From IMG/VR virus record IMGVR_UViG_3300027740_000026, positions 1 to 60,450 of that record: a DNA stretch of 60,450 nt; one strand, given 5' to 3'. The notes below the pieces were generated by a model. It made no database searches. It saw only the letters and a list, made by a program, of their open reading frames with translations, and was not told the DNA's origin. The DNA comes from a virus (Duplodnaviria; Caudoviricetes). The translations under genes were made by a program, and so were the position numbers. Positions 569 to 60,100 of the stretch are shown here, piece by piece. Every line of letters starts with the position of its first letter. The stretch's first letter is position 1.

Positions 569-758
569 GATGTTTTTTGACCAGACATTCGATTTTTACC
601 AGAGCCAGCCCCTGCGGCTTACGGGTGCCGTATTCCCATGAGAGGACCGTCCTCATAGTCACGGAGAAAAGTTTGGCAAACCGTGCCCGTCCCTCCGTTT
701 TGTTCAGCCGAGGGTACAACTTTTCCCGTAACGCCCTGATCTCTTTATTTGTTGCCAT
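543..758 (-). CDS. XRE-type HTH protein
   Basis: FAKLFSVTMRTVLSWEYGTRKP helix-turn-helix pattern. Confidence 0.75.
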   Translation of the reverse strand: MATNKEIRALREKLYPRLNKTEGRARFAKLFSVTMRTVLSWEYGTRKPQGLALVKIECLVKKHLDAASTTC

Positions 759-1074
759 TTTTTTTCTCTCCGCTACTTTTTCCTATTTGCTGATAACACA
801 GTATCATCAGCTCTTCTTCTGTCCCAAAAATACGCTTAAATTCGGCAGGGTTTCCGTGGATCGACACCTGGCCTGTCTGATGATGCTCCAGACATAAACC
901 GAATGCCTTTTTGTGGTCCCTGTTCCCATGCCGTAAAACATGATGCAGATTGCATCCCGGCACGTCATCTGGATCTTGGCCCATGTCTGCCAGTATTTTC
1001 CGGCACACCATACAGCCATGTTCCCTAATTTTTTTGTGCCACCGTTTTTGCTCGGCGGTTGGGTTGTTTGCCAT
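745..1074 (-). CDS. Ref-like (RecA-dependent) HNH nuclease
   Basis: GCMVC...LHHV...GLCLEHHQ...SIHG...FGTEEEL pattern. Confidence 0.7.
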   Translation of the reverse strand: MANNPTAEQKRWHKKIREHGCMVCRKILADMGQDPDDVPGCNLHHVLRHGNRDHKKAFGLCLEHHQTGQVSIHGNPAEFKRIFGTEEELMILCYQQIGKSSGEKKNGNK

Positions 1075-1075
1075 T

Positions 1076-1122
1076 ATTTAACAACCGCTACACCCGACAA
1101 GCGGGTGAGCTTTTTGTTATAT
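1076..1122 (+). other. attC-like site A1 (minimal 47-bp family)
   Basis: ATTTAAC-aacc-GCT[A]CACCCG-acaag-CGGGTGAGC-ttttt-GTTATAT; near-identical copies at 7909 and 59435. Confidence 0.8.
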
Positions 1123-1257: not shown

Positions 1258-1479
1258 CCATACCCGCTTGAACTCCGGGTTAGCCAAATAAACCTTTTCA
1301 GAGTTGGAGTAACGGATATTGTCGGGCGCTATTTTCATGTAATCCTTCAGGTCTTTCGTGGCTTGGGGGACAGACAGCCCGAAATAATCAACCACTGCAC
1401 TTCGGTTGATACTCCCATATTGATGCAGTAAGAAATCAATAAAGCGGAGGCGTTGTTCAACTGCATACTTTAAGGGCAT
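1252..1479 (-). CDS. Stand-alone winged-HTH resembling the N-terminus of CapW/BrxR-type WYL regulators (cassette cargo)
   Basis: QRLRFIDFLL..YGSINRS...YFGLSVPQATKDLKDY...APDNIRY....KVY...PEFK; 75 aa, no WYL domain. Confidence 0.75.
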   Translation of the reverse strand: MPLKYAVEQRLRFIDFLLHQYGSINRSAVVDYFGLSVPQATKDLKDYMKIAPDNIRYSNSEKVYLANPEFKRVWA

Positions 1480-1562
1480 AACCAGTCATCCAAGCCGACC
1501 AGGTTGAAGCGCCGTTGCCCAGCCGTGGTCTTTCGGCTGGCGGCTTAATTAAAACGTTGGCC
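1476..1562 (+). other. attC site A2
   Basis: GCATAAC-cagtc-ATC[C]AAGCCG...CGGCTTAAT-taaaac-GTTGGCC; resembles aadA-type attC. Confidence 0.9.
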
Positions 1563-1772: not shown

Positions 1773-1861
1773 GGCCAACAAATTAATTAAGCAGAAGGCG
1801 AGAAGTCCCGGTGGCCTTCGGGCAAGCTCGTTTGCGCCTCTGCTTATTAAAGCCGTTATCT
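1773..1861 (+). other. attC site A3
   Basis: GGCCAAC...TAAT[T]AAGCAGA...TCTGCTTATTA...GTTATCT; R'' complements R' of A2. Confidence 0.88.
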
Positions 1862-2193: not shown

Positions 2194-2284
2194 AGATAAC
2201 AAGCGGGTCAACTCGACCGCGTGAAGATTCCGATTTTGAATCTGGTAATTCAGTGGCGCGGTCGAGTTACCCTAGTCGTTATTT
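2194..2284 (+). other. attC site A4
   Basis: AGATAAC-aagc-GGGT[C]AACTCGACCGCG...CGCGGTCGAGTTACCC-tagtc-GTTATTT; R'' complements R' of A3. Confidence 0.92.
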
Positions 2285-3377: not shown

Positions 3378-3695
3378 TCAACCCTCCACAAGTTTGTCTC
3401 TCAACGCCTCATTTGCCACTTCAACAATCCTGGCGATCACGTCACCTGGATCAAACCACTCAGTTCCGACAGGATCGCCGTCCTCGGAAAAATGCTCATA
3501 ATAATACGATCCGTCAGAGCAACCCGGCTGGAGCGCAACTATTTTCTCCAGGGCCTCCCTGTATTTATTAATTATTTCAGTATTTTTGAAGCTCAAAAAT
3601 GCTCCGCACAGGTCAACACAATGGCAGCTATGCTTTTTACACCCGCTCTCGGATGTGTCGCTGTGGGGGCAGGTTTTATTCCAGCATACTTCCAT
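3378..3695 (-). CDS. Hypothetical Cys-rich protein
   Basis: ORF directly downstream of the exonuclease; AGGAG RBS. Confidence 0.6.
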   Translation of the reverse strand: MEVCWNKTCPHSDTSESGCKKHSCHCVDLCGAFLSFKNTEIINKYREALEKIVALQPGCSDGSYYYEHFSEDGDPVGTEWFDPGDVIARIVEVANEALRDKLVEG

Positions 3696-3696
3696 G

Positions 3697-4323
3697 TTAT
3701 GCTCCTATCTTTTTGATCATTTCCATTGTGTCGTACATTTCCGAAATAAAAACGTCTACTGCCTGCCGAATCTCTGCAATCACTTTCCCGTCCCTGGGAA
3801 CACGCTTAATAAAGATTGGCAGGCCGGGCCAATACGAAACAAAATCGCACCATTCGCGGTCGGCAACCCACAGCTGGCCCTGGATCTGTTTGATGTGCTC
3901 GGCTGGAACTTCGTCGCGCAAAAGACAATCAAGGTGCAGATGCGGCAGTTTTGTTTTTATCTCCAGATCCCCATCGCTCCCGATGAGACCGTCAGGAGAT
4001 GCGCCGATATCATCCCCTAACTTGATGAACCCTACTTGCTGCACTTCAGCGCCGCAGGTCAAAGAGTAGAGTTGCCGCGCTGAATCCTCCATTTCCTTCC
4101 CGCGCTCCATATGTGCGTTGGTGTGTCCATCAATCACTTCTCCAGTGAGTCGCTGCCCGACAAGGGTGAGCATATAAGTCCGGCGAGTCTTCGATTCTCC
4201 GCCGCCCCTCCCTTTGGCCATGACGGTATCAAACATTGAGGCGGTGACACAGCCGGCGCGGATAGTATGCCATTCAGGCTTTCCCTGCTCAATTTGGTCA
4301 TAGATGATCCGCTCCATTCGCAC
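3697..4323 (-). CDS. YqaJ/lambda-exonuclease family recombination nuclease
   Basis: EWHTIRAGCVTAS, MERGKEME, GASPDGL, LEIKT, QIQGQLWV, CDFVSY motifs. Confidence 0.93.
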   Translation of the reverse strand: MRMERIIYDQIEQGKPEWHTIRAGCVTASMFDTVMAKGRGGGESKTRRTYMLTLVGQRLTGEVIDGHTNAHMERGKEMEDSARQLYSLTCGAEVQQVGFIKLGDDIGASPDGLIGSDGDLEIKTKLPHLHLDCLLRDEVPAEHIKQIQGQLWVADREWCDFVSYWPGLPIFIKRVPRDGKVIAEIRQAVDVFISEMYDTMEMIKKIGA

Positions 4324-5053
4324 CTCCTTTTTTCATACGGGAGATAATGCCTTCAATCGCTGTCCGGGCTTTTTTATATTGTGTGGCCGGCAAATTCTCA
4401 AACGAATCCACTTTCAGGTATTCTCCGAGGAATTTACCGAGCCACTTCTCGTCTTTGTTGAGGTTGTTGGCGGCAACCAACTCTTCAAGTTCAAAAACCT
4501 GCTCTTCCGTGATGTACTGCTCTCCCGCTCCGTGGCCATCGTCATCCATGTCCTTCGATGAAATACCCAACAGAGCAAATCCTGTATATCGTTTCAGGTA
4601 CTCTACTGAACTTCCAACAGCCTGGATTTTGTTTTTTCCCCCTGAATCATCAGGGGAGGCAGCCAGCGATGTGGTGATGCTGTGTCCCATGGAGTGGCTG
4701 AGAATCGCCGTCACAGTGATATCTCCGTTGTCGCCCTGCTTTGTGTCCCATGTAAGAGACAGGTCACAACTACCCAAAACAGGGTTAATTTCTCCCAAGG
4801 CTGCGCCCAGAGTCGCGTGGTTGTATTGTGTCGCGCCTTTCTGCGTGGCGTATTTGACTGTTTTTTCTTTGTAGATAGTAAGCGGATGCCGCTTAAATTC
4901 GGCCAGCGCAAGATGAAAAGCTTTTCTCGCCTCGTTAGCTTCGTATTCTTTTTGTATAGCTAGCAACTCTGCCAACTTCTGCGTATCAATATTGCCGGTA
5001 ATTGCCGCCTGTACCAATGGCGAGATCCCTTGAGTCGTTTGCAGTTCGTTCAT
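4298..5053 (-). CDS. ERF-family single-strand annealing protein
   Basis: YNHATL, HSMGH, SGGKNKIQAVGSSVEYLKRY, DDDG motifs. Confidence 0.9.
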   Translation of the reverse strand: MNELQTTQGISPLVQAAITGNIDTQKLAELLAIQKEYEANEARKAFHLALAEFKRHPLTIYKEKTVKYATQKGATQYNHATLGAALGEINPVLGSCDLSLTWDTKQGDNGDITVTAILSHSMGHSITTSLAASPDDSGGKNKIQAVGSSVEYLKRYTGFALLGISSKDMDDDGHGAGEQYITEEQVFELEELVAANNLNKDEKWLGKFLGEYLKVDSFENLPATQYKKARTAIEGIISRMKKGGANGADHL

Positions 5054-5069
5054 TTTCCCCCCCTTTTAA

Positions 5070-5297
5070 TTAAAAGTTGTTAATTCCAATGAAAACCCCG
5101 GCCCCACCATCAAACCGGAAATTGTATATCTGCCCGGTTGGGTTGCTGAAAATCTCTATTCCTGGCAGGTCTTTTATTGTTTCCAGGACAAAAGCATTTA
5201 CCGGATATGCGGCTGAACCGAAAAATAAAACAGGGAAAACTGATTCAGCCTCGGGTGACAAAATTTCAGCAATTCTTTTTTCTCCACGTTCTCTCAT
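5070..5297 (-). CDS. Hypothetical protein
   Basis: ORF with AGGAGG RBS in operon. Confidence 0.55.
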   Translation of the reverse strand: MRERGEKRIAEILSPEAESVFPVLFFGSAAYPVNAFVLETIKDLPGIEIFSNPTGQIYNFRFDGGAGVFIGINNF

Positions 5298-7599: not shown

Positions 7600-7878
7600 T
7601 CATTGCAGCACCCTATCCAGGAGTTCTACAATTTTTTGCAGAGCTTCAATGTCCTGCATCGCCTTTCCACGGGCCACAGCTATTGCCTCATTCTTCGTTC
7701 TCCCCACACCCCCAACATACGGGAGATATTCTTTTCCTTGGGAAAGAATGCGGCACTGATAACCGTCTTGTTTCGGATAGCCCCATCCCATGGGCCATAT
7801 TTTTCCTATGTCTTCCCCTTCAAAATTAATTCTTTCAACTTCTTTTTCCGCTTCTCGTTCTCGCGTATACTCCAGCAT
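7600..7878 (-). CDS. Hypothetical protein
   Basis: 92-aa ORF with GGAGG RBS. Confidence 0.6.
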   Translation of the reverse strand: MLEYTREREAEKEVERINFEGEDIGKIWPMGWGYPKQDGYQCRILSQGKEYLPYVGGVGRTKNEAIAVARGKAMQDIEALQKIVELLDRVLQ

Positions 7879-7908: not shown

Positions 7909-7955
7909 TCCTAACTATCGCTGCACCCGACAAGCGGGTGAGCTTTTTGTTATGG
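7909..7955 (+). other. attC-like site A5 (minimal 47-bp family)
   Basis: TCCTAAC-tatc-GCT[G]CACCCG-acaag-CGGGTGAGC-ttttt-GTTATGG. Confidence 0.82.
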
Positions 7956-7956
7956 A

Positions 7957-8634
7957 TCACGAATGGTAGTCCACGGTAACGCACAGCCAATCTGGTTTCG
8001 GGGTTATTTGCGCGGCGTAATCCTCGCGATACGTCGCGGCTTTCTCAATAAATTGATTAACTGCTGTCTTGGCTAACCCATCCCAATTTATCGGCATGTG
8101 GTTAACTCCGTTCCACTGTCCATCGCATAGCATAAACTTGGCCTCAGTGGTAGCCCCGTCATGAGATGGGGCAGCGATAATCACCCTGTGACATTTAAGG
8201 GTCTCAGGGATCTCATCAACCCTGCAAATGTCACAGGCCAGCAGGTCATTCCCGTCATACTGATTCTGAGAGTGGGCAAAGATCGGGCATGGGGTGATCT
8301 CACCGTTTTCAGTTGGGAACAGGTCGTTCCACATTTTGTCAACCATGGGGATCTGGCTGGCTGGTGAAAGCTCTTGTTTGCCACATCGCAGCCCGGAGAC
8401 CTTAACCTCTGCCGCTTTCAGGTCTTTGTAAAATTGTTCTAATTTGCTGGGGTCATATCTGCAAGACTCCTTGCTACCGGCCCATCGCCCTCCAACAACA
8501 AACCAGTCCCAGAAGGCATGGCCGGAAGCGTCTTCATCGTCGCGTTTGTTTTCATCAAAAGGATCAAGAATAGCTTCCAATGTTGCCTGGATGTTGCTTG
8601 ATGGCGGCATAATTACTTCGCAATGGTAGTGCAT
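7957..8634 (-). CDS. Conserved phage protein with WDWFVVGGRW motif (cassette cargo)
   Basis: MHY...WDW..GGRW.G...VDYH pattern; bracketed by GTTATGGA/TCCATAAC. Confidence 0.75.
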   Translation of the reverse strand: MHYHCEVIMPPSSNIQATLEAILDPFDENKRDDEDASGHAFWDWFVVGGRWAGSKESCRYDPSKLEQFYKDLKAAEVKVSGLRCGKQELSPASQIPMVDKMWNDLFPTENGEITPCPIFAHSQNQYDGNDLLACDICRVDEIPETLKCHRVIIAAPSHDGATTEAKFMLCDGQWNGVNHMPINWDGLAKTAVNQFIEKAATYREDYAAQITPKPDWLCVTVDYHS

Positions 8635-8641: not shown

Positions 8642-8734
8642 CCATAACAATCGGTTCAACGCAGATGGCGGGATCTGCTGTTGAGTTTTAAATTTTCTTC
8701 GGTGGCCCGCCACTGGTTAACCGAAGCGTTAGGA
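8642..8734 (+). other. attC site A6
   Basis: CCATAAC-aat-CGGTT[C]AAC[G]CAG...CTGGTTAACCG-aagc-GTTAGGA; two extrahelical bases. Confidence 0.92.
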
Positions 8735-9184
8735 GGAGCAATGCCCCGTTCCGCCTCCACAATGCCCGGCCATGGCCTGAATAAATTTGTCCATCTTGCG
8801 CAACAACCTTGTGTATCTCTCAACAAGATTTATCCCGTCAAGGTGTTCAATCAGAGCGTAGAAGGTGTCTTTCCGATCGTGGCATATCTCCGGCACTGAG
8901 GTCGTCACAAAAACCTTCAGCTCCGTCTTGGCTTTTATCTGCCTCACACAGGCTAATAGTTCGTCAAGGTATAGGCACGGTTCGCCGCCCAAAAACAGCA
9001 CGTCGTCTAGCCCCTTGGCGTTGCTTACAACCGTTTCTACTATCGCCGCAACATCGGGCTTTGTGAGGCCCAGCCCATCGAAGCGACGGTCAATGCAGTG
9101 GGCGCATTTGTTGTCGCACGCACTCGTAAAATGGACATCAAACGAGTTATATATTCCGTCGCAACAGTTACAACTAAGTTTCAT
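8729..9184 (-). CDS. Radical SAM protein, probably truncated (cassette cargo)
   Basis: CDNKCAHC (CxxxCxxC) and FLGGEP; only 151 aa; TAA inside R' of A6. Confidence 0.8.
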   Translation of the reverse strand: MKLSCNCCDGIYNSFDVHFTSACDNKCAHCIDRRFDGLGLTKPDVAAIVETVVSNAKGLDDVLFLGGEPCLYLDELLACVRQIKAKTELKVFVTTSVPEICHDRKDTFYALIEHLDGINLVERYTRLLRKMDKFIQAMAGHCGGGTGHCSS

Positions 9185-9191: not shown

Positions 9192-9278
9192 TCCTAACAA
9201 TAAAATTAACCTGACGGGGTTGATCCGTCCGTTTTTTGCGGGTAGTTCTCGGCCCGCAGGTTATTTAAAGCGTTATGC
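9192..9278 (+). other. attC site A7
   Basis: TCCTAAC...AAAT[T]AACCTG...CAGGTTATTT-aaagc-GTTATGC; CCTCCTAAC complements GTTAGGAGG of A6. Confidence 0.9.
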
Positions 9279-9569: not shown

Positions 9570-9672
9570 CAATCCTCCGTAATTCTGAGTTGCGCTCGCG
9601 GCGTTTCGGTTATGGGTTTTTCTCTCTGGCCCACAATCTGCATGGCAGAATTACGGAGGATTGTTCTTTTTT
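9570..9672 (+). promoter_or_regulatory. Leader hairpin/attenuator before the replication initiator
   Basis: Perfect 18-bp inverted repeat 9570-9587/9646-9663 followed by a T-run. Confidence 0.7.
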
Positions 9673-9687
9673 CTGTTGAATCAAACA

Positions 9688-9954
9688 ATGGATAAGAAAT
9701 TAAAATCTATCTTTGATAACCACACGTTAGGACCAACAACTAAATTGGTCTATATTTATTTAGTACAAATGGCAAACAAAGACGGTGAGTGCTGGCCAAA
9801 TTACGAGCATATCATGGCTGCGTGTGGAATTACGAGTAAGGCCACTGTATCTAAATCACTTAAAGAGCTGACTTCCGCAGGGGAAATTGTGGTATTCAGA
9901 AAATCAAACGGTTTTAGGCATTCAAACAGGTATGGAATATTGCCGTGTCGATAG
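9688..9954 (+). CDS. Winged-HTH replication initiator-like protein
   Basis: KLVYIYL...ANKDGECWPNYEHI...CGI.SKATVSKSLKEL...G...SNRY; adjacent to iterons. Confidence 0.8.
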   Translation: MDKKLKSIFDNHTLGPTTKLVYIYLVQMANKDGECWPNYEHIMAACGITSKATVSKSLKELTSAGEIVVFRKSNGFRHSNRYGILPCR

Positions 9955-10063
9955 TTCATTTTTTGAACCTTCGATAGTTCATTTTTTGAACTATCGAAGG
10001 TTCATTTTTTGAACCTTCGATAGTTCATTTTTTGTGCGATTGGATAGTTCATTTTTTGAACCG
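9948..10063. repeat. Putative replication origin: five ~23-bp iterons
   Basis: TCGATAGTTCATTTTTTGAACCT-like units at 9948, 9971, 9994, 10017, 10041 with a GTTCA/TGAAC dyad (degenerate in copy 4); followed by AT-rich TATATAAAGACCT repeats. Confidence 0.85.
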
Positions 10064-10132
10064 TATATATAAAGACCTTATATAAAGACCTAAAGACAGG
10101 CTAGCCAAGGAAGAAAATTTTAAGAGGGCCAA

Positions 10133-11680
10133 GTGAAACAATTTCGGATCGAGCATACAATTTTATCATCTGGCCCTGGATTCAATTTGAGGGACTACCA
10201 GAAAAGGGCCGTTGCCGAAATACGTTCTTCTTTGGCTGCTGGATCTCGGCGTGTTGTGATGGTAATGCCTACGGGCTCGGGCAAGAGCGCGACTTTTGCC
10301 GAAATAACCAAGCTGGCCCTGGCGAAAGGCAAGCGTGTTCTGTTCCTGGTTCACAGGAGAAATTTGGTTGATCAGACCCGGCAGGCGTTTGCCTATCATG
10401 GCGTGACAGAGACAGGCATAATCATGTCAGGCTATGAAACTGCACTGAATGAGCCTGTCCAGTTGGCGACCTACCAAACCTACGGGCGGCGGATCAAGTT
10501 GGAAGACGGCGAAACGGCGTTTAATTTCCCAGCCGACCTGATTTTAGTCGATGAAGTCCATAGGGGCGTGTCTCAGGGATACGTGGACATTTTCAGCCAT
10601 TATCCAGAAGCCGTTATTGTCGGATGCACAGCAACTCCGACGAGAGCAGACGGTCGGGGTCTGGGTGAAGTGTTTGACTCATTGGTTGATGTCGTTGACA
10701 CACAATCGCTGACTGACAACGGATATCTCGCCCCATGCCGTTATTTTGCCCCAAGTGTTCCCAATCTTGATCAGATTAAAATAGTCAGGGGTGATTACGA
10801 CGTTAAAGAGTTGGATAAACGGATGAACCAGGCCAAGCTTGTTGGCGATGTGGTGCAAAACTGGTTGCGGCTGGCAGCAGATAGGAAAACTATAGTGTTT
10901 GCCGTGTCTGTCGCCCATTCAAAAGCCCTTGCCGCTGAATTTAACAGACACGGCATATCGGCATATCATCTGTCCGCCAAAAGTACCGACGAGCAACGGG
11001 ACTACGCATTCAGAGAGATGGAGCGTGGAAATATCCAGGTGATTTGCAACTGCGCTTTGTATCAGGAGGGCATGGATGTGCCTGACATATCCTGTGTTGT
11101 GATGGCAAGGCCGACAAAAAGCCTGGGGCTCTGGCGCCAATGTGGCGGACGAGGTTTGAGACCAGCACCAGGAAAGGACCTGATGTTATTGGATCATGGC
11201 GGTTGCATCGAGGAAAACGGGTTACTGACTGACCCTGTGGAATGGAGTTTGGACGGGAAAAAGAAGGCATGGAGAAAAGCAAAAAAAAGGAAACCGGCGG
11301 AGAAAAAAGACCTCATTTGTTCGGCCTGCTCCCTGATTTTCTCCGGGTCCGCGAAATGCCCTGACTGCGGCAATGAAGCAAAAAGTTTTGGGAAAAAAGT
11401 TGAGGTAATTGACGCGGATCTGTCCGAAATTGGCGGCAAAAAAAAGGCCACAATGGAAGAAAAGCTCAAATTTTACGGGATGTTGCGTCATTATGCGAAA
11501 TTGAAGGGGTATAAAGACGGATGGTGTTATCACAAATACAAAGAGCGGTTCGGGGTGGCTCCGAAAAACGGTATCAGCCCGCCATGTATCCAACCTGATC
11601 ATGCGTTTTACTCGTGGATGAAACATTTGACGATAAAATACCTGAAAAGTAAGGAGCGTCATGCCGAGAATCGAATTTGA
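10133..11680 (+). CDS. SF2 (DEAD-like) DNA helicase with C-terminal Zn ribbon
   Basis: LRDYQ, PTGSGKS, DEVH, TATP, EGMDVP, QCGGRGLR, CSAC..CPDC. Confidence 0.95.
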   Translation: MKQFRIEHTILSSGPGFNLRDYQKRAVAEIRSSLAAGSRRVVMVMPTGSGKSATFAEITKLALAKGKRVLFLVHRRNLVDQTRQAFAYHGVTETGIIMSGYETALNEPVQLATYQTYGRRIKLEDGETAFNFPADLILVDEVHRGVSQGYVDIFSHYPEAVIVGCTATPTRADGRGLGEVFDSLVDVVDTQSLTDNGYLAPCRYFAPSVPNLDQIKIVRGDYDVKELDKRMNQAKLVGDVVQNWLRLAADRKTIVFAVSVAHSKALAAEFNRHGISAYHLSAKSTDEQRDYAFREMERGNIQVICNCALYQEGMDVPDISCVVMARPTKSLGLWRQCGGRGLRPAPGKDLMLLDHGGCIEENGLLTDPVEWSLDGKKKAWRKAKKRKPAEKKDLICSACSLIFSGSAKCPDCGNEAKSFGKKVEVIDADLSEIGGKKKATMEEKLKFYGMLRHYAKLKGYKDGWCYHKYKERFGVAPKNGISPPCIQPDHAFYSWMKHLTIKYLKSKERHAENRI

Positions 11681-15574: not shown

Positions 15575-15774
15575 CACCGGACGAGTTCAAGGCCAAGCAA
15601 GCCGCGCTTGGCCTGACCAACTTCGACGCCGCCACAGTCCTCCGTGTTTCCGTGCGGACGGTGGAGAAATGGCGGCAGGGCACAAGAGCAGTGCCGGGGC
15701 CAGTGGTAGTGATTTTCTTCCTGCTGGCCAAATATAAAGGGGCGATCCGGTACCTACTGGATCGAGACACATAA
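15571..15774 (+). CDS. XRE HTH autoregulator (Aca-like)
   Basis: LGLTNFDAATVLRVSVRTVEKWRQG..VPGPV; TAA inside attC B3. Confidence 0.85.
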   Translation: MTPDEFKAKQAALGLTNFDAATVLRVSVRTVEKWRQGTRAVPGPVVVIFFLLAKYKGAIRYLLDRDT

Positions 15775-15833
15775 CGCTCCGGCTCACTGGTGCCGCGCAG
15801 TTTGCGGCTTCCGCGTGTAGCCGGTTGTTACCC
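15769..15833 (-). other. attC site B3
   Basis: Minus strand GGGTAAC-aa-CCGGCT[A]CAC[G]CGG...CCAGTGAGCCGG-agc-GTTATGT. Confidence 0.9.
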
Positions 15834-15967: not shown

Positions 15968-16159
15968 ATGAAAACTTACAAAGAAATGTACGAAGAAGCT
16001 GCTGCTAAAACAAACTTTGTATACAAAGGGTATACAAAAGGCAACGCCCTTTCTCTGTACGTTGACGAAAAATACGGGGTGAATGCGGCGGCGGACAATG
16101 CCGCTCATGACGCTCTTTGTGAAGTTGTATCAACAATGAGTTTTGACGATGAAGAGTAA
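15968..16159 (+). CDS. Small protein with acidic tail (candidate anti-defence, cassette cargo)
   Basis: GGGAG RBS; 63 aa ending FDDEE. Confidence 0.7.
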   Translation: MKTYKEMYEEAAAKTNFVYKGYTKGNALSLYVDEKYGVNAAADNAAHDALCEVVSTMSFDDEE

Positions 16160-16340: not shown

Positions 16341-16424
16341 CATTCAGCATAATCAGCGGCGGTCTGTGAACCCCGTTAAAATCACCGCGCGTCCCCGCCG
16401 TCTGCGTTGATGCGCTTGTTAGCA
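16335..16424 (-). other. attC site B4
   Basis: Minus strand TGCTAAC-aagc-GCAT[C]AAC[G]CAG...CTGATTATGC-tgaat-GTTACCC; CAGGGTAAC complements GTTACCCTG of B3. Confidence 0.9.
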
Positions 16425-18601: not shown

Positions 18602-18685
18602 CGCCAATGGTAACCAGCGGCGGCCACGGAGCTTGACGACGAGCAACGCTGCTCCCCGCCGTCTGCGTTTACCCGCTTGTTAGTC
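18596..18685 (-). other. attC site B5
   Basis: Minus strand GACTAAC-aagcg-GGT[A]AAC[G]CAG...CTGGTTACC-attggc-GTTAGCA; TGCTTGCTAAC complements GTTAGCAAGCA of B4. Confidence 0.9.
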
Positions 18686-40468: not shown

Positions 40469-43400
40469 ATGCTCGAAGAATTTGTCGAATTATATCAAGA
40501 TCCCGGTTTTAACTCCCTCTCTCAGCAAGACAAAGAGAAAGTGTTCCGTGGATACTTTGAGGATAATGTTGATCGTGAGTTTTTCAGCCTGCCACCAGAA
40601 CAACAGGAAATAGCCAGGACAAACTTTGTCAGGGAGCAAACACTTCCTGAACCAGAGCCGACCGTTCTTGGCGAGGCCGGAAAAGCTGCCAGTGCTATTG
40701 TCCCGAAGTGGCTTGGAACTTTGGGTTCTGGAGTCGAGGCTTTTGGCGAGGGTGTAAGCAAGGCCGGGGCTGAAGACATTGGAGGGAAAATATCCGACAT
40801 CGGAGCTGGGTCAAAAAAATATTGGGGCCAGAAGGTAGAAGGTCTTGCAGCTCATCCAGACATTCAAGGGGCAATTCTTGACAAACCATCCCTCGCCGTT
40901 GACCCGAAGTGGTGGGCATACAACACCATTGATATGGCAGGAAGTCTGATTCCGACCATTGCCGGTTATGCCATTGGCGGGAAACCTCTTTCCGGTGCGG
41001 TAGGCGGTTCCATGGAAGCTTCGCAAACATGGGATGACATGCGGAAAGCCGGGGTATCTCCAGAAAAAGCAGGCGCCGCAGCCTTGGCGGTTGGAGTTGG
41101 AACAGGTATCCTGAACGCTCTTGGCGTTGATAAAATGCTTACGAAAAGAGCCGGTGCTGGTTTCGCAAGCAAGGTGAAGAATTTTCTTATTTCCGGGACA
41201 TGGGAAGGCGGGACAGAATGGGCGGAAGAACCATTTGTCGCCGTTGTTGAGGGTATAACACAAGGGAAGCCGTGGCAGGAAATAGCCCAAGACGTAAAAA
41301 AGAGAACGAAAGAGGGGTTCAACGTCTTTCCTCCTTCCATGCTTCTTGGCGGTATTGGAGGGTCATCAACTAGACCAACCGAGAAGCCTAAAACAGCGGA
41401 AACAGGAGAAAAAACACAGGAAGCAAGCCGTGTTCAGCAGCCGGTGACTTCTGAAAAAATACTGTCTTCTCTCAAAGAATCTCTTTCTGAAGGGCAGATA
41501 TCACCAGATGAAGTCCGAGCCAACATCAATGAGTTCGCGGAACAAGGTGTGACTCCTGAACAGGTCGAAGCTGTTATCCGAAGTTTCAAGCCAGAACAAC
41601 CAATCCAGCAAAGAGCCGACGAGACGACACCTGCGGCCAGAAGGGCAACGGAATCTCAGTTCAAGGCACAGCAGGAACTAAAAGAGCAGCCCGGTTGGAT
41701 GCAAACCGACAAGCCAGCCAGAGACGATTCTGATTTTCTCCAACAGATGCAGAAATCGAGGGAGTATGCCAAGGCTAAAAATCAGCCCGGCGCATCGTTA
41801 AGGTTTGAGGGTGAATTTGATCCCAATCAGGTTGTATCCGGAGAAGATGGCCTGCCGCTATTATTTAAAAACCCTATCTTGGCAATTCGATATGCGCAAA
41901 AGAACGCACCAGGAGCGAAGTGGCTGAAAACAGACAATGGTGTTGTGCTTATCGGTGGGAAAAAACCGGAACAAAAATCAGTGGAAGCCACGCAACACGG
42001 GAAAATCAGACAGCAAGAGCTTCGTGACGTTGTAGACGCTGACCCGTTAAATGCGGTTGCAAGGGAAATTCAAAAAGAGGGCGGGATCAGGCTTACCGAT
42101 GATATTAAAAATACTTATAGCGCCGATACCAGGAACCAACTCAACAAGCGTTATCCCGGCCTGTTCAGCAACAACGGGAAAATTTACGGAGATGAAGCAG
42201 CGGAGAAAGCAGGCTTTGAGTCGCTTGACTCTTTCGTGGAAGCACTGAAAACCTCCAAAACAAAAAGTGAAATCGGCAAACTGGCAAGAGAACCAGATTT
42301 AAGCCATATAGACGATATTGTAAAAGCAGGGCTTGAGCCAACAGTTGACGCTTTAGGGCGCCCGGCAAAAATGAGGGCTATCGACCTTGCTCTTGGCGAT
42401 GAGGTGCAGGCCAGCGGCGATGATGTCCCGGCAGACAGATACACAGTTAAAGGGATTGACAAGGCTGGTCGCGTCGTTCTGGAAGATGGCGTTGAAGTCC
42501 GGGTTGACGCCGACACAGAACTTGACGTAGAAGGGCGCAAGCGATCTGGCAAAGATTTTGACGAAAACAACCTGCTTCCTTTGAGAAAAGGAGAGGAAGC
42601 TGAAGACCCATTTTCTTATGAACAAGGCAACATAGAACCGAATGAGAAAGAAATTACCGGTAGTGGTAGAGAAGCGGAAGGGGCGGTGGATGGTAAAAGT
42701 GTTGTGGGCGCAGTTGGAGAGAGGCCCGTTCAAAAACCTGAGCGAAGCCGTGCTGTGCGGGCTGACGATGCTCCCGGAAAGGGTGTTCAAGGCGTAGAGC
42801 CATGGCAAAACAGCGATCTTGCCACCAGTCCGAACATTTCTCCATCCAGAGTGACGGCAAAGAAACAGGCGGACGGGAAATACGGCATGGTGTTTATTGG
42901 CACCGGCAATGAGGTGTTTCCTGGTGAGCGGTTTTCTTCAGTGAAAGAAGCTCGGGATTTCTTTAAGGTTCAGCAAGCAAAAGCACAGGCCGCTACTCTC
43001 TCCGCACAGGGCGCGAGTACAGAGAGTGGCCTGACTCCACAAGGAGCTATCAAGGCCAAGCCGAGCCCGACGGGCGAATCGGCTACTTATAACCCTTTCA
43101 GAAATAAGGCTGAAAAGGCACGGAAGAAATATGAGTCAATGAGCGGGAGGACTGTGCGCGACGATGCAATGGAAAAATCGTTTCCATTAGGCGCAGGGTT
43201 TGGGCGAGGGACGCAGCGTAGCCGAGACAAAGCCATTGATTCCAGCGTTGCCCGTGCAACCCGTATAGTTGAAGCCAGGCGGGAAATGGACCAGCTTGAA
43301 GCCCAGGCCGACGCATACGACCGAGGGGAAATCACGGCGCAGGGACGAAGAACAAAAAGCGAGAAGCTTGTGGTTGCCGAGAAAGAACTTCGCAGGCGAG

Positions 43401-46400
43401 AAAAGATGTTGCCGATTATCAACCGGCCCGATGGCGCTACGGTGATCACCAGGGAGCAATGGAACAAAACCCATGCTGACTACAAAGCTATTTCCGTTTC
43501 CCGTGATGGTACATACCGATATAGAAGCATGATTATTAACGGGGCATTGACTCCGGTGTTTATGACGGATGCGAAGGAGACTGGACTACCAAAGACGAAG
43601 GCTTCCCAAGTAAACAAAACCCCGGAATCTTTAACTAAGCAACCAGTTAAGGAAAGTCAAGTGGGCTCCGACACGGATCAGGCTGCTTCGGAGACTCTGT
43701 TGAGTGCGCCTGGTTCAACAACCCAACCTCCAACGCCTGTAACAGATGGTCAGCCGGTCAGGGCAAACGAGAAACCCACCGCGTCTGTAAAGGTTCCATC
43801 GGGCGCACCAGTGGGGGTTGGGGCTGTTGCTTCGACGCCAGAAGAAACATACCCCACGTCAGGCGAAAAGGTTGATGGGCGCACGGTTAGACAAACGGTT
43901 CCCAACCTGTCGTCAATTGAATCCTCAATCCCAGATGGGGAAGAACTCGCGGGTGTCCGGGAAGTTCAAATGTCCCTGTTTACCCTTGATGAATCACCAC
44001 TTGCCACCGATGCTCGCACAAAAAAGCTCGCGGAGGAAATTAGGGCATCTGGAGAGATTTCCCCGCTGATTGTCGGGGTGGATAGCAAAGGGCCTTATAT
44101 CATTGAGGGAGCGCACAGATACGATGCGCTAAAAATCCTCAGGGCCAAGTCGTTCCCGGCAGTGGTGGTAATCGACAATGAAGCAATTGAGGCCAAGACC
44201 GTAACAGCCCCAGCAATCAAACAACAGTCAAGCAAAGAAGCCGAACCAGATCAGCAAGTTGCACCATCAACCCCAGACGATGCCGGATTAAAATCAAGTA
44301 AGCCTGCCTCCGAGATGACCGCCGCAGAGCTGCTTCGTGCCGCCGCTGATAAAATGGATGGTAAGGCAGAAAAACGCTCAGATGCTGAAACGGCCACAGA
44401 AGATACCGCCAAACAAGCCGAACAGACCGAAGAGAAAGCCGTTACCGAGAAAACGACAAAATCCGCTGCTGATTTGTCAACTAAGGATGACATAACCGGC
44501 GATAAACAGGAAGCAATCACTTTGCCGCCTGGTAATTTCAGCCGTGAAAAATTGACCATTACAAAGCGAGGCCGCAAGTGGTTCGAGGCAACTCGCGAAG
44601 GGAAAACCTACCCGGTAAAGGTTGAAATAAACGAGACAAGCACAGGTTGGGAAGTTGGGCAGACATATCCAACCCCAGCAAATATCGATGTGAACTCGTC
44701 AAGATATGGGGCAACTACGACCATATACCCGTTATCTGATAACCAAGAGCGAGAGTCAAAAAGAGTATCGACAATTCCAGAGATAAAAAAATGGCTTGCG
44801 TTTGTCGAAGAGAAAGCACCGGACTATATTTATCAGAATGGCGTTGATAAGCTGAAAAGCCTTGGGATTGACGATCATCCTGAGTTGCAAGCAAGGCTTG
44901 ACGCTGCCATCGATTCGGTGAAGGTGGCAAAGAAAAAAGCAGCGACGGCAAAGGACGAAGCCAAAAAAGCCGAGGCAGCAATACCAAGAATATACTTGAG
45001 CGTTCCATATGAAGACCGGGCTATCGCAAAACGGAACGGTGCCAAGTTTGACGGAGACAGGTCGCAATGGTATGTGACCGGCTCTGTGCCGGAAGGATTA
45101 AAAAAGTATGGCACTGACGGCCCTGGTGGGAGTGGCGTCTTGCCAGATGAGCAGTTTCGCATTGGTGGCGGGCAAGGCTATGGATGGCGTGAGATGCACC
45201 CCGGCGAGACAATGCGCAACCCCCGCGACGCAGGGCCTAAGTATATCACCATTATATCCGCATCAAAGAAGTATTTCCGGGATGACGGTATGTCGTTCGG
45301 CGTTGGAGACGAGCAAGGATATGTTTTCTCGGCGATAGCAAGGGAGGCAACCGAAGAAGAATCCGCACCGTTGCGCACGAAGGAAGCGGCAAGCGCGGAG
45401 AAAAAGAGAGCGAAGAAAGCATTACAAGGAATAGCCGCCGAAATCCAAAAAGACGGCGAGCGGCCCGATGGCTCAAATGTGACGGGAGGTACACATTACT
45501 CCGACACGCAGAACATCTATGGTGGCGGAGAATGGTTTACCATCGGCGATGAATATATCTGGTACGTCAAAAATAACGGGATGGACGGTGATAATTGGAG
45601 CAGCAACAATGTCAGCACCGGTGGGGCTGGCGGTATTGGGTGGCGAGTGCCGTTTGACGAGAAGCTGGCCGAGAGGATAAAAAAAGAGTCCGCCATAGCA
45701 TCCCCAAGCAAAGACGCTTCGCTCTATTCCCATGCCGCCCAAACCTACGCCACCACTCCCGCAGAAGTAGAAGCAGAACTCCGCAAGTCTTTCCTTGGCA
45801 AAGGCACCGACAACCTGATCAAGCGGGATAAGCTGGAAGTTGTGCGGACTGAGACCGGTTTGCCTGATTGGATCGGGCGGGCGTTGAAGAGTGTTATGCA
45901 CAGGAGATACAAAAGAGATACCCCGATGAGCGATTGGGGGCACGCTCTTTTCGCGGACGATGGCGATTCCGTTAAGCATTATGGCGACTTCCATTATACG
46001 GTTGACACCGCCAGGTTGGGCGACAAGCTGGTTTATGCTGACTCTAATGAGTTTACGAATGCCCTGCGGTCTGCCCTGGACGAGTACGGCGATGATTACG
46101 GACTTAATTCATACCAGCAGGACGGACAGACGAGAGAGGAACTTATTGAAGCTCTTGTTGACGAAGCAAACCCTGACGATATTGTAAATAGTGCCGGCAT
46201 ATGGGACTCCGATCTTGTGGAGCTGGTATGGAATAAGGTAATGGAGCCGAATGGCTGGACGGTCGTCAAGACTGATGACGGCGGCATTGCTTTTGAAGAG
46301 TCTGATATCAACCCACTCTACTCCAAAGACGGCACCATAGTCGGCGCCTACGATCCCAAGGGCGGTAAAGACGGTAAGGGTGGCAAAATCTGGTTGGTCG

Positions 46401-49400
46401 CTGATAAGATCGCCAAAGGACAAGCTGCCGGTGTTGCGTTGCACGAAGTTTCACATGCCTTACTTTTGAGCGACGAGAAGTACATGGCCGCCCGTGCCAA
46501 GATCGAAGCTGACTTTGAACGACTGGAAAAAATCGGCCACAAGGCGGTAAAGGCGGCGTTTGCTCGGGTGCCGGAAGACACCCCGGCAGAGTTCCGCACC
46601 ACGGAAGGCATAGGGTATTTCCTCGAAAATGCCGCGAACAAGCCGCAACCCCTTTACAAGCGCATCATTTCCGCAATCAAGATGGCCCTTATGAGGCTTG
46701 GAATCCCCACCACCAGGATGACCGAGGCTGATTTTGTGACGCTCTTCACGGCTGGCGCAAGAAATTGGGCCAGGAAGACCGACCAATTTGCCGAAGCCGG
46801 GAATATGGTCGGCGATACCGTCCCGGCAATGTTGAGCCAGATGGCAAAAGAGTTCGGTATCAGTATTGAAGAGGCGCGGAGTCTTAAAGCTGGGTGGACC
46901 GATAGGCGAGTAGACAACGAGATCCAATATGCGGCATATGATGACGGGAGGACGAAAGCCGTTATAGGCTTTGTAAACCCGCAAGATTTTGTTTTAGCAA
47001 CAACGCCGAGCAAAACGTCAGCGGCCTCTATTTCAGAGTCAGCGAAGCCGCTTGACATCGACAAGATGAGGAAAGAATCCCAATCCCCATATCTGGTTGT
47101 TGAAGAAGACGAACATATCATCGACCACGAAGGGCGTCACAGGATGTCAGCACTGGCAAAAGCCGGTGTTACTTCTGCCCCTATCGTCCTTGACTATAGA
47201 AGGCCAGCCAACCGCAATGACGTTGAGACAATAGAACTTGAGGGGCAGTCTTTCGAGTTTGGCGGGACCGGCAAGACCTTAACGGTCTCCGGCGTTATTC
47301 CCCTTACGTTTGAAAACAAAACCCGCCTGAAACAGTTAATGGGAGAAACCGACATCCGGTACAGCAAGCAGCGAACAGAATCAGAAATGAAAGAACTCGG
47401 ACTAAGGAGGCACAATGGACATCAACCTTTGGCGGAAAAACTTGGCAAAATTATCGGGCAAAAGGTCACGGCCTGGCGTTTGCCTGACGCCATTTATCGA
47501 CAAGATCGCAAGGGGCGAGTTGACACTACAGGAAGTCCTCGGGGGGAACATGAATTCGCCGGGAGACTTGCCGACATCTTCAAAAAGAGAATCGTCTGGG
47601 TAGAAATCACAGGAGGGATAAACGGGGTTGTATTGATGCGTGATAAATTGATGCGCGACACGATCTTCGTAAACGTCTTTGCCGACAAACCAGCTCATGT
47701 AATCTTTGGGCATGAACTGTCACACCATATCGAGCAAGACACCCCTGAATTATTTGACGCCCTTTACGAAGCTATTGAGCCCCTCATAAAAAATACCGAA
47801 ACGTACAAGACAACACGGGATATCAACCTCAGCGACAAGGGTGTGAAAAAAGAGATCATAGGCGATCTGCTTGGTGACAATTTCAATAATCCTGCATTTT
47901 GGCAAGCGGTGGAAGCTCATACCGAGAAGGGAAAATTTAGGCGGCTGATTGACAAGGTGGTTGCGTGGTTGGATGGGGTGCTGGCTCATTTTACCGACTT
48001 TGGGTCTTCGCAGTTTGTAGATGATACTCAAGAGGCGAGGGACTCCCTTGCTTTTATCGTTGCAGAATACGGCGTTTCCCGGCGCGAAGATGGCAGGTGG
48101 GGTAACGGAGAAGTCCGGTACAGCCAAGCCGAAATACAGGAAGCGGCCAAAGCCATCTATTCCAAGCTCGAACAGGTAGCAGCCTCAGCATTCCAAGGTA
48201 TGAAAGCGCAGTCCGTTTTGAACTTCCTCAACAAGCAAGGTGTGAAGAAAACTGAAATCGAAGCGACCGGGCTTGACGCATGGATCAAAGCCAAGAAGCC
48301 TGCCGACAAGGTAAGCCGTGGCGAACTCCTGGACTTCGTGAAGGCCAACACCGTTGAGCTTGAGGACGTGGTGCTGGGGGGAGGTTTAACAGCGGATGAG
48401 CAGAAAGAACGAAAAAGCCTAATCGCGGAGGAGCAAAATCTTGGCAGGGAGATAGGAAAGATAGAGAGAGAGCAAGATGAATTAATTGACGATCAAGAAG
48501 AGGTCGTAGTTAATGGTGTTGGTTTTGCCGTTGGAAGATCTGGTCAGGTGTTATACGACAACAAAATGTTCGAGTACAATAAGGCCGAGGAAGAGTATGT
48601 AAACTCTTTGGGCGAAGATAATATTGACAGCATACAGGCGAGTATTTTTAGGGAAAAAGGTGGAGCCAAGAAAGACCATCGCAGGGAGGCAGAAGAAAGA
48701 CAAAAAACATATTCGACAGAGCGTTATCGGGAACGCTTTGAAGCGAGAAATAAAAAACCGAAAAAGTCAGATCTATTTAATTACAATATTGTGCCGGAAA
48801 AGATATTGCGAGAAACCCTCGCCAAAAATGAACTATCCCGTCTATTGAATCTTGCACAAAAAGAAAAAGATTTGCTGACTCGCAAAGAAAATCTCATACG
48901 GAAAAAGACTCAAATATCGCGCAAAATAGGGTCGTTCAAGGAAGACGACACCCACTTCTCCCAGTATGTCGAGCCGGGGGGAGTTGAAGGCTCGTACCGG
49001 GAGATGTTTGTCACGGCACCCCCAAGTAATGCCGAAGGAACAAGGAGTGATTTAAGAAAACTCAGAGAGTCATTTGAAGAAAAATATGGGGAAGATTTCA
49101 CAGTATCCATGTTGTCGGCTACCGAAAAAACTGAATATGAGTCACTTGGTAGAACAGCAGGCAGGCGGCAATCCACTTGGCAAGACGGCCACTCCCAATA
49201 TTCGGACGTAAAAAATCCTGTAATAAGAATTAGATTTAACACGGTAGAGGCGGACGGCAAGAAAATTCTCCGCATCGAGGAAATGCAGGGGCCTAACCCG
49301 GACAACCAAGCCAAGATGCCCACACACCTCCTGGACAACATCTACAACTTGGGAGTCAAGCGCATCCTGGCCTACGCCAAGGAGAACGGCTTTGACGGGG

Positions 49401-58392: not shown

Positions 58393-58778
58393 TCTCCTGT
58401 AAATCTAATTCTTACCTCTCCGCCCTTGACAACTTCATCACGTAAAAAAGGGTGGCCGACAAAACGCCTGTCATTGACCCCTATGGCGTCGGCTATTCCA
58501 TCCATCAAGTTTTTGCAGGCACTATAGCAATTGTCGGCATCACGGAGCCGCTTGTCTGGTGGGTAAAAATCAATAAACAAATGTATTTTACCATCTCCAA
58601 AAATGACCGGACTTTTCGCAAATGCAACCTTCGTCAACAACTCCCCTGTTCGCCTGTATGCCTTCGCTGCCCTGCTTTTTACAGCCCAATGGCACCGTGA
58701 ATTAGGGCTCAACTCTTTTGGAAACCACGGATATGAGATTTCAATCAAAACAAGTTCCCTTTTTTTTCTCGTTTTCAA
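58389..58778 (-). CDS. RusA-like Holliday junction resolvase
   Basis: LSPNSR.HW, FYPPDKRLRDADN...K...DGIADAIGVND. Confidence 0.85.
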   Translation of the reverse strand: MKTRKKRELVLIEISYPWFPKELSPNSRCHWAVKSRAAKAYRRTGELLTKVAFAKSPVIFGDGKIHLFIDFYPPDKRLRDADNCYSACKNLMDGIADAIGVNDRRFVGHPFLRDEVVKGGEVRIRFTGD

Positions 58779-58966: not shown

Positions 58967-59428
58967 TTATGCCGGATCTCCGCGAAGCATTCTTTTTTTT
59001 GCTTCAATTACCATCTCTTCAACTGTCAGTCCAATTTGATCGGCGCACCACTGGAAAAATTTCGTCATCCATTCTTGCCGGTCATTTCCTTTTAATTTGT
59101 CAAACGCCATCGACCTGTACTGCAATTGCACGCCGCCATCAGGCCTAACAAATACCATGGACGGATCAACAAAATGTGTGCCAACCTTACACGACATTTT
59201 CACACCGTCGAATGTTTGGTGGCATGGATTGTTCGAGTTTTCGAGAACCAGCTTGTAACACGCATGTAAAAGTCCAGACTGCTCTATGATTTTCCGTGTT
59301 GGTTTTGATACGGATGTTATGCGGACCTTCACAAGTTGATTCGTTGCCAATTCAGAAGCAAGAATTCTTTCATCTTCTTCTGAAAAAGGCTTCAAATAGC
59401 CTCTATACTGACAAATGAATGGTTCCAT
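58967..59428 (-). CDS. NinB/DUF1367-like protein
   Basis: R...Q..LLHA, RSMAFDKL; located beside the RusA-like gene. Confidence 0.55.
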   Translation of the reverse strand: MEPFICQYRGYLKPFSEEDERILASELATNQLVKVRITSVSKPTRKIIEQSGLLHACYKLVLENSNNPCHQTFDGVKMSCKVGTHFVDPSMVFVRPDGGVQLQYRSMAFDKLKGNDRQEWMTKFFQWCADQIGLTVEEMVIEAKKRMLRGDPA

Positions 59429-59434: not shown

Positions 59435-59481
59435 TCCCAACGACCGCTGCACCCGACAAGCGGGTGAGCTTTTTGTTAGAT
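59435..59481 (+). other. attC-like site C3 (minimal 47-bp family)
   Basis: TCCCAAC-gacc-GCT[G]CACCCG-acaag-CGGGTGAGC-ttttt-GTTAGAT. Confidence 0.82.
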
Positions 59482-60044: not shown

Positions 60045-60100
60045 ATCTAACCCAGCGTTGTAGCTGACGGCTTCGCCGCAGCTAAACTTTTTTGTTAGCA
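60045..60100 (+). other. attC site C4
   Basis: ATCTAAC-ccagc-GTT[G]TAGCTG-acggcttcgccg-CAGCTAAAC-tttttt-GTTAGCA; GCATCTAAC complements GTTAGATGC of C3. Confidence 0.92.

Follow-up and report, generated by a model that had tools for sequence, protein, structure and literature searches.

Genome and location of the 47-nt sites

The virus record IMGVR_UViG_3300027740_000026 (Duplodnaviria; Caudoviricetes) was analysed over its full length of 60,450 nucleotides (nt), which is called the window here; it is the whole record and is estimated to be a complete phage genome. Three copies of a 47-nt minimal attC-like site, named hp1 (copies hp1-A, hp1-B and hp1-C), were found in this genome, and all three sit in short gaps separating minus-strand genes. 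Bases 1-148 recur at 60303-60450 with a one-base register shift near 124-126 (a terminal overlap of ~148 nt), so that the unit is ~60.3 kb and either circular or permuted. One end of the record has a 1-nt indel, which shifts the frame of the open reading frame (ORF) ending at 60095.

The minus-strand genes are located at 56.1-60.4 kb and 0-9.2 kb (the left arm, an early leftward operon), and their products include a Ref-like nuclease, a YqaJ exonuclease, Erf, and ATP-grasp, radical-SAM-like and RNA-ligase-like proteins. The plus-strand genes, at 9.66-56.0 kb, comprise an HTH_36 gene by an iteron-like array, helicase, primase, HD, RlaP, terminase, portal and capsid genes and an ORF of 3965 amino acids (aa). 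The portal is ~45% identical to those of F116-like Pseudomonas phages. A megablast search of the phage collection gave no close relative of this phage, and the related loci found by protein-seeded searches were only 33-45% identical and did not carry the 47-nt motif.

Repeat and structure of hp1

A 34-nt core of hp1 lies on the + strand at 1086-1119, 7919-7952 and 59445-59478, with no mismatch to the string quoted in the initial annotation of this DNA. No further match to the core with up to three mismatches was found in the window, and none of 100 dinucleotide shuffles contained any. Within the core the copies differ at the bulged base only, which is A in hp1-A and G in hp1-B and hp1-C. A repeat search recovered the same three copies as a 44-nt family with 86-100% identity, and the flanks of the copies are unrelated beyond ~45 nt. 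A public run, possibly of the source sample, gave an assembly graph with a break at the 34-nt core, where the depth is 33 against ~14 in the flanks; the doubled depth and the break fit a true multi-copy repeat. The contigs of two DNA runs gave no more than such graph breaks at the repeat, and no interpretable excision or insertion joint was found there.

Along the + strand, the site is composed of an R'' box (7 nt), 4 nt, GCT, one extra base, CACCCG, ACAAG, CGGGTG, AGC, TTTTT and an R' box (7 nt). A 3-bp helix (GCT/AGC) is thus followed by one extrahelical base, a 6-bp helix (CACCCG/CGGGTG) and a 5-nt loop, with a 5-nt T-rich spacer before R'. In all three copies R'' ends in AAC and R' begins with GTT (ATTTAAC/GTTATAT, TCCTAAC/GTTATGG and TCCCAAC/GTTAGAT), and DNA folding leaves the spacers of 4 nt and 5 nt almost or entirely unpaired; attC spacers usually have 5-6 nt on each arm. 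The fold of either strand is a stem of 9 bp that has a single bulge and a loop of 5 nt, to which hp1-A adds an AACAA/TTGTT extension; its folding energies are -11.6 (minus strand) and -10.8 (+ strand) kcal/mol, which none of 200 shuffles equalled. The extra base after the 3-bp helix is present in every copy; on the + strand it is A or G in the window, and in homologues elsewhere the sense strand has C, T or G. In attC a second conserved extrahelical base, T on the bottom strand, lies 6-8 nt from the first; hp1 has no second bulge, its stem stops at 6 bp, and on the bottom strand that position is held by an unpaired loop T. Identity among the three window copies begins within 3 nt of the predicted crossover AA|C.

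Comparison was made with 100 kb of a phage P1 isolate record, MH445380, of which 50 kb contain two class 1 integrons and 50 kb are P1 backbone; this isolate and its two integrons are named in Qi 2023 (PMC9892861). The class 1 attC sites of its aadA1, cmlA1 and estX cassettes resemble hp1 in the AAC/GTT boxes, the unpaired spacer, the 3-bp helix, the extrahelical base on the R''-L'' arm and the 6-bp helix. The L box of hp1 (GCT-G-CA...TG-AGC) is that of the true cmlA1 and estX sites, and hp1 shares CCG-A-C with the aadA type where the second extrahelical base of the latter lies. On the other hand, the hp1 stem ends in its 5-nt loop where class 1 attC has the second extrahelical base, the loop is pyrimidine-rich on the bottom strand, one spacer has 4 nt instead of 5 and the other is T-rich. 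Unlike class 1 integron attC, hp1 lies in a replicon that has no integrase and its genes are antisense. According to Bouvier 2009, it is of little consequence which nucleotide forms the first extrahelical base, and a terminal structure may have as few as 3 nt; Nivina 2016 describes a stem of 6 bp after the first extrahelical base and links a short terminal structure to easier extrusion from duplex DNA.

Most of the structural description in the initial annotation was borne out. The positions 1076, 7909 and 59435 are the starts of the full site including the AAC box, and our architecture scan returned identical bounds. The site is shorter than the usual attC (47 nt against a published range of 57-141 bp; Nivina 2016), and the extrahelical base was correctly described as one position early, since the AAC-side spacer of the three copies is 4 nt long and that of aadA1, qacH, aadA2, psp and cmlA1 is 5 nt long. 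The scan gave control spacers of 5 and 6 nt at five sites and of 4 and 4 nt at estX and dfrA; the last two were parsed with a 4-bp helix, which we took as equivalent to 5 nt plus 3 bp. The other attC sites were likewise rightly called diverse: six longer sites of 56-93 nt, unlike in sequence, lie on the same strand.

Neighbouring sites and the two arrays

A strict architecture rule required the following order within 35-160 nt: R'' ending in AAC, 3-7 nt of spacer, a helix of 3-4 bp, a single extra base on the 5' arm, a helix of 6 bp or more, again 3-7 nt of spacer, and R' starting with GTT. This rule recovered all seven class 1 junction sites (estX, psp, aadA2, cmlA1, aadA1, qacH and dfrA) and nothing else in the 50 kb with integrons, and gave no match in the 50 kb of P1 backbone. 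In the window it gave eight matches, all with the top strand on +, seven of which are in the left arm. Shuffles gave a mean of 0.3 for the window (maximum 3, n = 200) and of 0.04 for the left arm (maximum 2, n = 500), against the seven observed. The eighth match (16005-16146) lies within a right-arm ORF and was judged a probable false positive. A relaxed rule gave five matches in a 50-kb control, with a shuffle mean of 2.5, and is too noisy to count alone.

A covariance model was built from four aadA-type class 1 attC sites only; a MAFFT alignment of all seven control sites misaligned the 3' arms and was left out of the modelling. Among true attC sites, the model gave 35.0 bits to cmlA1 (E = 1.1e-8) and only 6.8 bits to estX (E = 7.7), and did not list dfrA at E up to 10. 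The site at 60045-60100, next after hp1-C, scored 35.6 bits (E = 3.6e-8), about level with the true cmlA1 site. Its minus-strand fold has the order of the aadA1 bottom strand, namely R box, spacer, 3 bp, bulge, 6 bp, bulge and terminal stem (4 bp against 6) with a GAA loop. hp1-A was aligned over its full length (E = 0.028), and the E-values of hp1-B and hp1-C were 0.85 and 3.3; two further stretches, 1482-1556 and 9198-9272, had E-values of 0.065 and 0.55 (bit scores in Table 1). The window matches listed were all on the + strand. The best match in the 50-kb control had 15.3 bits (E = 0.069). Two other model matches in the window, 58454-58494 and 5036-5097, were judged probable false positives. 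The site at 1476-1562 was missed by the strict rule owing to one mismatch in the 3-bp helix.

Under a 4-kb rule, the left-arm sites fall into two clusters, one with starts at 59435, 60045, 1076, 1476, 1773 and 2194 and the other at 7909, 8642 and 9192, all on the + strand. Each cluster, with sites called by our own rule and model, thus has at least two attC sites less than 4 kb apart on one strand and no integrase, as a cluster of attC sites lacking an integron integrase (CALIN) does; the CALIN definition and the 4-kb clustering rule of IntegronFinder are those of Cury 2016.

Table 1. Positions of the hp1 copies, other attC-like sites and adjacent genes in the left arm of the window
Feature	Position	Strand	Evidence and context
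hp1-A	1076-1122	+ (attC-top-like; - bottom-like)	bulged base A on +; exact motif, architecture parse, fold, model 16.8 bits
hp1-B	7909-7955	+	bulged base G; exact motif, architecture parse, fold, model 12.1 bits
hp1-C	59435-59481	+	bulged base G; R' GTTAGAT; exact motif, architecture parse, fold, model 10.2 bits
Canonical 56-nt attC	60045-60100	+	next site after hp1-C; strict rule; model 35.6 bits, E = 3.6e-8
attC-like site	1476-1562	+	model 15.7 bits (1482-1556), local alignment; sequence read directly; aadA-type L box over 8 bases (C-AAGCCG-A-C)
attC-like site, 89 nt	1773-1861	+	strict rule; model 11.2 bits
attC-like site, 91 nt, 12-bp upper stem	2194-2284	+	strict rule
attC-like site, 93 nt, weaker call	8642-8734	+	relaxed rule only
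attC-like site, 87 nt	9192-9278	+	strict rule; model 12.7 bits (9198-9272)
Ref-like RecA-dependent nuclease gene	745-1074	-	first gene on AAC side of hp1-A; PF16786, E = 1e-9; phrog_1588, E = 1.9e-18
92-aa gene	7600-7878	-	first of ~5.6-kb site-free block on AAC side of hp1-B
225-aa gene, family unassigned	7957-8634	-	single-gene cassette on GTT side of hp1-B; 45% identical homologue in contig L037
Radical-SAM-like gene	8729-9184	-	single-gene cassette between 8642 and 9192; PF04055, E = 4.5e-7
153-aa gene	58967-59428	-	first gene on AAC side of hp1-C
RNA-ligase-like gene	59476-60018	-	single-gene cassette from hp1-C to attC at 60045; phrog_14301, E = 4.9e-70; PF17720, E = 1.2e-10

Occurrence in other phages and contigs

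The exact core was found in three virus contigs, G001 (25 kb, one copy), G002 (two copies) and G003, and in seven metagenome contigs distinct from these and from each other. G002 is a complete phage of 40.8 kb with terminal repeats, and its two copies are on opposite strands. The motif is the sole nucleotide similarity between the window and G002, whose protein matches are distant (23-35% identity). The homologues are 49-50 nt long. Eight of ten were listed by the covariance model at E up to 5, with 14.1-24.8 bits, and five of the ten were above the control maximum (24.8, 20.1, 20.1, 19.0 and 16.2 bits). Among 185,579 species-representative bacterial and archaeal genomes, the exact core gave one match only, in a coding region of an actinobacterial metagenome-assembled genome (MAG). 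The match is an exact one of 24 nt (L010, 4202-4225) in GC-rich, apparently coding sequence and has no attC-like flanks.

Several of these contigs also have additional attC sites, spaced like cassettes, on one strand with hp1. In L011 there are sites at 27-76 (31.5 bits), 245-299 and 509-567 (32.7 bits), followed by hp1 at 838-887, and in L017 hp1 at 366-414 is followed by sites at 1102-1166, 1420-1484 and 1682-1736 (29.6 bits); G001, L012 and L016 each have one further site. The site at 27-76 of L011 is a second minimal attC, of 50 nt (CAT-G-CAGCCG-ACAAG-CGGCTG-ATG), with the loop of the 47-nt site and a compensatory change in the stem. In L017, the cassette beside the hp1 homologue (409-1080) encodes a DNA methyltransferase (phrog_67, E = 6.5e-50).

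The flanks of 13 phage-type contexts were compared. In both of the two informative pairs the AAC-side flank outside the site, which is downstream in the sense direction, is shared (92% over 387 nt and 86% over 213 nt), and the GTT-side flanks of the same two pairs are unrelated; the reverse pattern was seen in no pair. Mosaic junctions occur at the hp1 site.

Genes and cassettes adjacent to the sites

The genes next to the three copies are listed in Table 1. The ~5.6-kb block on the AAC side of hp1-B has no sites and holds the YqaJ exonuclease (3697-4323) and Erf (4298-5053) genes. Of the neighbours named in the initial annotation, the Ref-like gene at 745-1074 was confirmed (PF16786). A NinB-like neighbour was not: the genes at 7600-7878 and 58967-59428 have no Pfam or PHROG family. 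At four well-supported genes, the TTA of G|TTA in the R' box provides the upstream gene with its TAA stop. This applies to the RNA-ligase-like gene, whose stop is the complement of the TTA in R' of hp1-C, and to the radical-SAM-like gene. In L037, the homologue of the 225-aa gene is followed by a GC-rich hairpin of unrelated sequence (3681-3715), which has a T-run on neither strand.

Evidence against an attC assignment and alternative explanations

Several observations weigh against the view that hp1 is an attC, and the orientation of the genes is one of them. In integrons the ORF of a cassette is on the attC top strand and upstream of its attC. The attC top strand is antisense to the genes at all nine left-arm sites, so that each attC precedes its own gene in the sense direction. 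The initial annotation pictures the genes on the other strand: the attC top strand is +, and the genes are on the minus strand, which also counts against the resident acceptor discussed below. The same antisense placement is seen in L011 (4/4 cassettes) and L017 (4/4), and a single right-arm site found by the relaxed rule has the opposite polarity and is again antisense to the local genes; in the control class 1 cassettes, the gene is on the attC top strand in 7/7. For three genes the orientation was verified by homology, namely the RNA ligase (E = 4.9e-70), the radical-SAM-like gene and the DNA methyltransferase of L017 (E = 6.5e-50). Such reversed genes, if placed at a host attI, would face the integron promoter, and according to Nivina 2016 no cassettes facing the promoter have been observed in integrons. 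A limited literature search, from which the supplementary data of Qi 2023 were missing, gave no description of attC arrays with uniformly reversed genes.

Other points on this side concern the enzyme, the source and the form of the site. No tyrosine recombinase (PF00589) was found anywhere in the window genome, and none was found in G001, G002 or G003. The exact core is missing from the species-representative genomes save for the one MAG match, and no donor integron is known. The 47 nt of hp1 compare with 60-86 nt in the control class 1 sites and 57-141 in the literature, and it has one bulge where attC has two or three. The R'' box and the spacer next to it vary among the three window copies, a variation for which exchange at R' alone gives no explanation. 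Because the exact core was the search query, its invariance among the homologues is partly circular. Finally, given the control maximum of 15.3 bits, the model scores of the window copies (16.8, 12.1 and 10.2 bits) are about at noise level and not significant alone.

Read along the + strand, hp1 also has the form of a textbook intrinsic terminator, with TTTTTGTT after a GC-rich stem of 9 bp, and was flagged as such by a terminator scan. Outside the window, eight of the ten homologous contexts have a second hairpin immediately downstream of the first in the sense direction. The R'' box and the spacer form this hairpin, in most cases as AGCGCCC/GGGCGCT with a T-run, and its AGC is common to the first stem (e.g., L012 1008-1057, L017 366-414 and L018 2108-2156), which would allow a 3-bp switch. 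This second hairpin could be a sense terminator or a folding switch. The + strand terminator and the second hairpin with its T-run make a transcriptional role plausible, either alone or beside recombination. The main alternative to an attC is that hp1 acts purely at the transcriptional or RNA level, either as a + strand terminator that insulates the early operon from antisense read-through or, in relatives, as a sense RNA hairpin that modulates the adjacent terminator, its likeness to attC being coincidental or vestigial. The orientation relative to the downstream gene, which is constant in all 13 phage-type contexts, suits this explanation, and attC sites themselves are said to be weak terminators in Qi 2023 (PMC9892861). 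However, the + strand T-run is poor in several homologues, and the window copies lack the second hairpin, of which they keep only a GTT or GTTGGG remnant. Although the GC-rich stem and T-run are those of an intrinsic terminator, hp1 faces against the genes, and termination needs neither conserved AAC/GTT boxes at fixed distances nor a bulge after exactly 3 bp. These boxes and the bulge recur in neighbouring sites of unlike sequence, where the rule has a background near zero, one of those neighbours (60045-60100) is an unambiguous attC, and no Rfam family matches at its gathering score. We consider a purely transcriptional hairpin unlikely.

A selfish or passive intergenic repeat, similar to miniature inverted-repeat transposable elements or repetitive extragenic palindromes, or a linker used by the Erf and exonuclease recombination system of the phage, would involve no site-specific recombinase. 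The identical core in unrelated phages, its location at mosaic junctions and the presence of Erf and a YqaJ exonuclease in the window would suit such an element. Among ~46 ORFs tested, however, there is no transposase, HUH or RAYT-type gene, each genome has just 1-3 copies, three direct repeats of 34 nt would invite deletions by homologous recombination, and both the attC architecture and the arrays are left unexplained. This explanation seems to us very improbable.

Four further candidates were considered. An N4-like promoter hairpin for a virion RNA polymerase was discarded because the 3965-aa ORF has no polymerase match. For a lambda nut-like or RAT-like antiterminator site, no regulator is common to the window and G002 and no antiterminator family occurs among the tested ORFs, and this idea was retained solely within the RNA-level alternative. 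For a sigma-70 promoter there was only a weak match in hp1-A, and promoter-like sites were not enriched (10 against 15 expected). A CRISPR-repeat mimic, host attB or host repeat was rejected on the distribution of the core, which is missing from the species-representative genomes save for the one MAG match in a coding region.

Position within arrays and a possible landing pad

In the initial annotation, hp1 was considered a resident acceptor for incoming cassettes. Stated fully, hp1 would be a dedicated attI-like landing pad, a preferred resident acceptor at the edge of a backbone module, with cassettes inserted at its GTT side. All three window copies close multi-gene blocks on the AAC side (4, 5 and ~20 genes, the block of ~20 genes including Erf and the exonuclease), whereas none of the six longer sites does so, each closing one gene or one gene plus a 30-aa ORF. 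Runs of small cassettes are found on the GTT side of two window copies and one cassette on that of the third, and the partner sites in G001, L012, L016 and L017 are also on the GTT side, although contig ends restrict the view of the AAC side in L016 and L017. In G002, both copies divide the promoter-proximal region from long operons. The 5-nt loop should extrude readily from duplex DNA, judging from Nivina 2016.

The flanks behave as the initial annotation predicted, in that the AAC (R'') side is conserved and the GTT side variable in both informative pairs. But this pattern does not discriminate, and is equally expected of any attC, because a cassette consists of a gene and its own attC, with the next cassette starting after G|TT. 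As to the position in arrays, hp1-B and hp1-C head their clusters, and the homologues of G001, L012, L016 and L017 are the first among the visible sites. The claim that each copy is the first site of its array stands for 7909 and 59435 but not for 1076: with the circular junction and the 60045-60100 site taken into account, the 4-kb rule places hp1-A third in a cluster of six. Nor are homologues confined to array heads: in L011 the homologue comes last in a close series of four sites and closes a cassette with one gene of 66 aa, which is the internal or non-head position named beforehand as refuting the claim. The resemblance to attI lies in the location at the edge of cassette runs and in the variable DNA on the GTT side. 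However, attI is recombined as double-stranded DNA next to intI, whereas hp1 is a palindromic hairpin of the attC type, folded on both strands, which also occupies non-head positions and has no intI adjacent to it or elsewhere in the genome. In sum, the description of hp1 as a minimal attC variant among diverse attC sites withstands the controls; the attI-like acceptor has partial support, and we consider it quite unlikely.

A probable minimal attC in phage early regions

The 47-nt site is a repeat with a fixed architecture, it stands in an array beside an unambiguous attC, it is present in unrelated phages, and mosaic junctions lie at it. From these features we conclude that hp1 is probably a minimal 47-nt member of the integron attC class, located within two integrase-less (CALIN-like) arrays that punctuate the early leftward operon of the phage. 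By the extrahelical-base rule, the bottom (recombinogenic) strand would be the minus strand of the window, which is the sense strand of the genes. This strand would fold on single-stranded DNA during replication, or by cruciform extrusion favoured by the very short loop, and a host-supplied integron integrase might bind the folded form. Strand exchange in the AAC triplet (G|TT on the top strand) would then lead to the exchange of gene modules or their insertion on the GTT side. Recombination at hp1, the enzyme responsible and any special acceptor role are, in this scheme, what we infer.

A similar wide use of one site type is known from sedentary chromosomal integrons, in which, as with hp1, one attC type (the Vibrio repeats, or VCRs) accompanies many unrelated genes. 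The VCRs are ~120-130 nt long with a long terminal structure and lie beside an integrase in one chromosome; hp1 is instead scattered over unrelated phages.

Integrase-less attC arrays in phages are described in Qi 2023 (Front Microbiol, PMC9892861), where IntI1 recombined five of six tested sites. The arrays reported here are like those phage CALINs in being intI-less and located in phage genomes, and in having a DNA methyltransferase cassette (here in L017). They differ from the phage CALINs as presented in that paper by their location in the early operon of a complete, uncultured soil phage, by ORFs that are all reversed, with the TAA stop built into the R' box, and by one very short site type that is repeated and common to unrelated phages; similar short sites may be present in the supplements of the same paper. 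Relative to known attC biology and to the phage CALINs of Qi 2023, as far as the latter are described there, the new features of hp1 are a length below the published range, a single bulge, its distribution among unrelated phages and the uniformly reversed genes.

Phages may swap accessory genes at such sites. A broader proposal, which we regard as possible but doubtful, is that phages of the soil community run an integrase-less 'reverse cassette' system of their own. Early accessory or anti-defence genes (RNA ligase, radical SAM enzyme, DNA methyltransferase and Ref nuclease) would each be preceded, in the sense direction, by an attC whose R' gives the TAA stop of the upstream gene. The minimal attC of 47-50 nt common to unrelated phages would be a docking or exchange site at the borders of backbone modules, operated in trans by a host integron integrase or an unrecognised single-strand recombinase.

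If the 47-nt site recombines, it would mark a new minimum for natural integron substrates, namely a single extrahelical base, a stem of 6 bp and a loop of 5 nt, and it would offer a compact natural test case for the structural rules derived from synthetic sites. Structure-guided site-specific recombination would then add to the mosaicism of phage early regions, beside homologous and illegitimate exchange, and would tie integron biology to the movement of phage accessory and anti-defence genes. The uniformly reversed genes are not predicted by integron models and would need an explanation of their own, for example from the origin of the cassette, the polarity of transcription or the strand of replication. 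Should the site prove not to recombine, it would instead warn that structure-based attC calls in phages can catch regulatory hairpins.

Other features of the genome

The ORF of 3965 aa (40469-52366) follows the tail genes and has a DUF5710 match (E = 2.6e-8), a ProQ-C-like match below the cut-off and a weak ParB-like match; no PHROG family was found for it, and it may be a polyvalent virion protein. A direct repeat of 52 nt with 98% identity is present at 2334-2385, in the early minus-strand region, and at 47182-47233, within this plus-strand ORF. Because the two regions are oppositely oriented, the early transcript would be complementary to the mRNA of the giant gene over 52 nt. The assembly graph breaks at this 52-nt repeat as well.

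About five units of 23-24 nt (TCGAWRGTTCATTTTTTGAAC-like), partly as inverted pairs, lie at 9948-10081, between the HTH_36 gene (9661-9954) and the helicase gene (10133-11680); they are probably iterons, that is, a replication origin. In the right (plus-strand) operon, intergenic palindromes ending in CGCTTGTTA(G) in the sense direction are found at 14447, 15769-15833, 16383-16422 and 18644-18683. Some of them contain nested pairs of AAC and GTT, as well as a sense-strand bulge on the 3' arm. The palindrome at 15769-15833 has the stem base GCTCAC...GTG-T-AGC in common with the 47-nt site, and is the only one of these palindromes to pass the relaxed rule.

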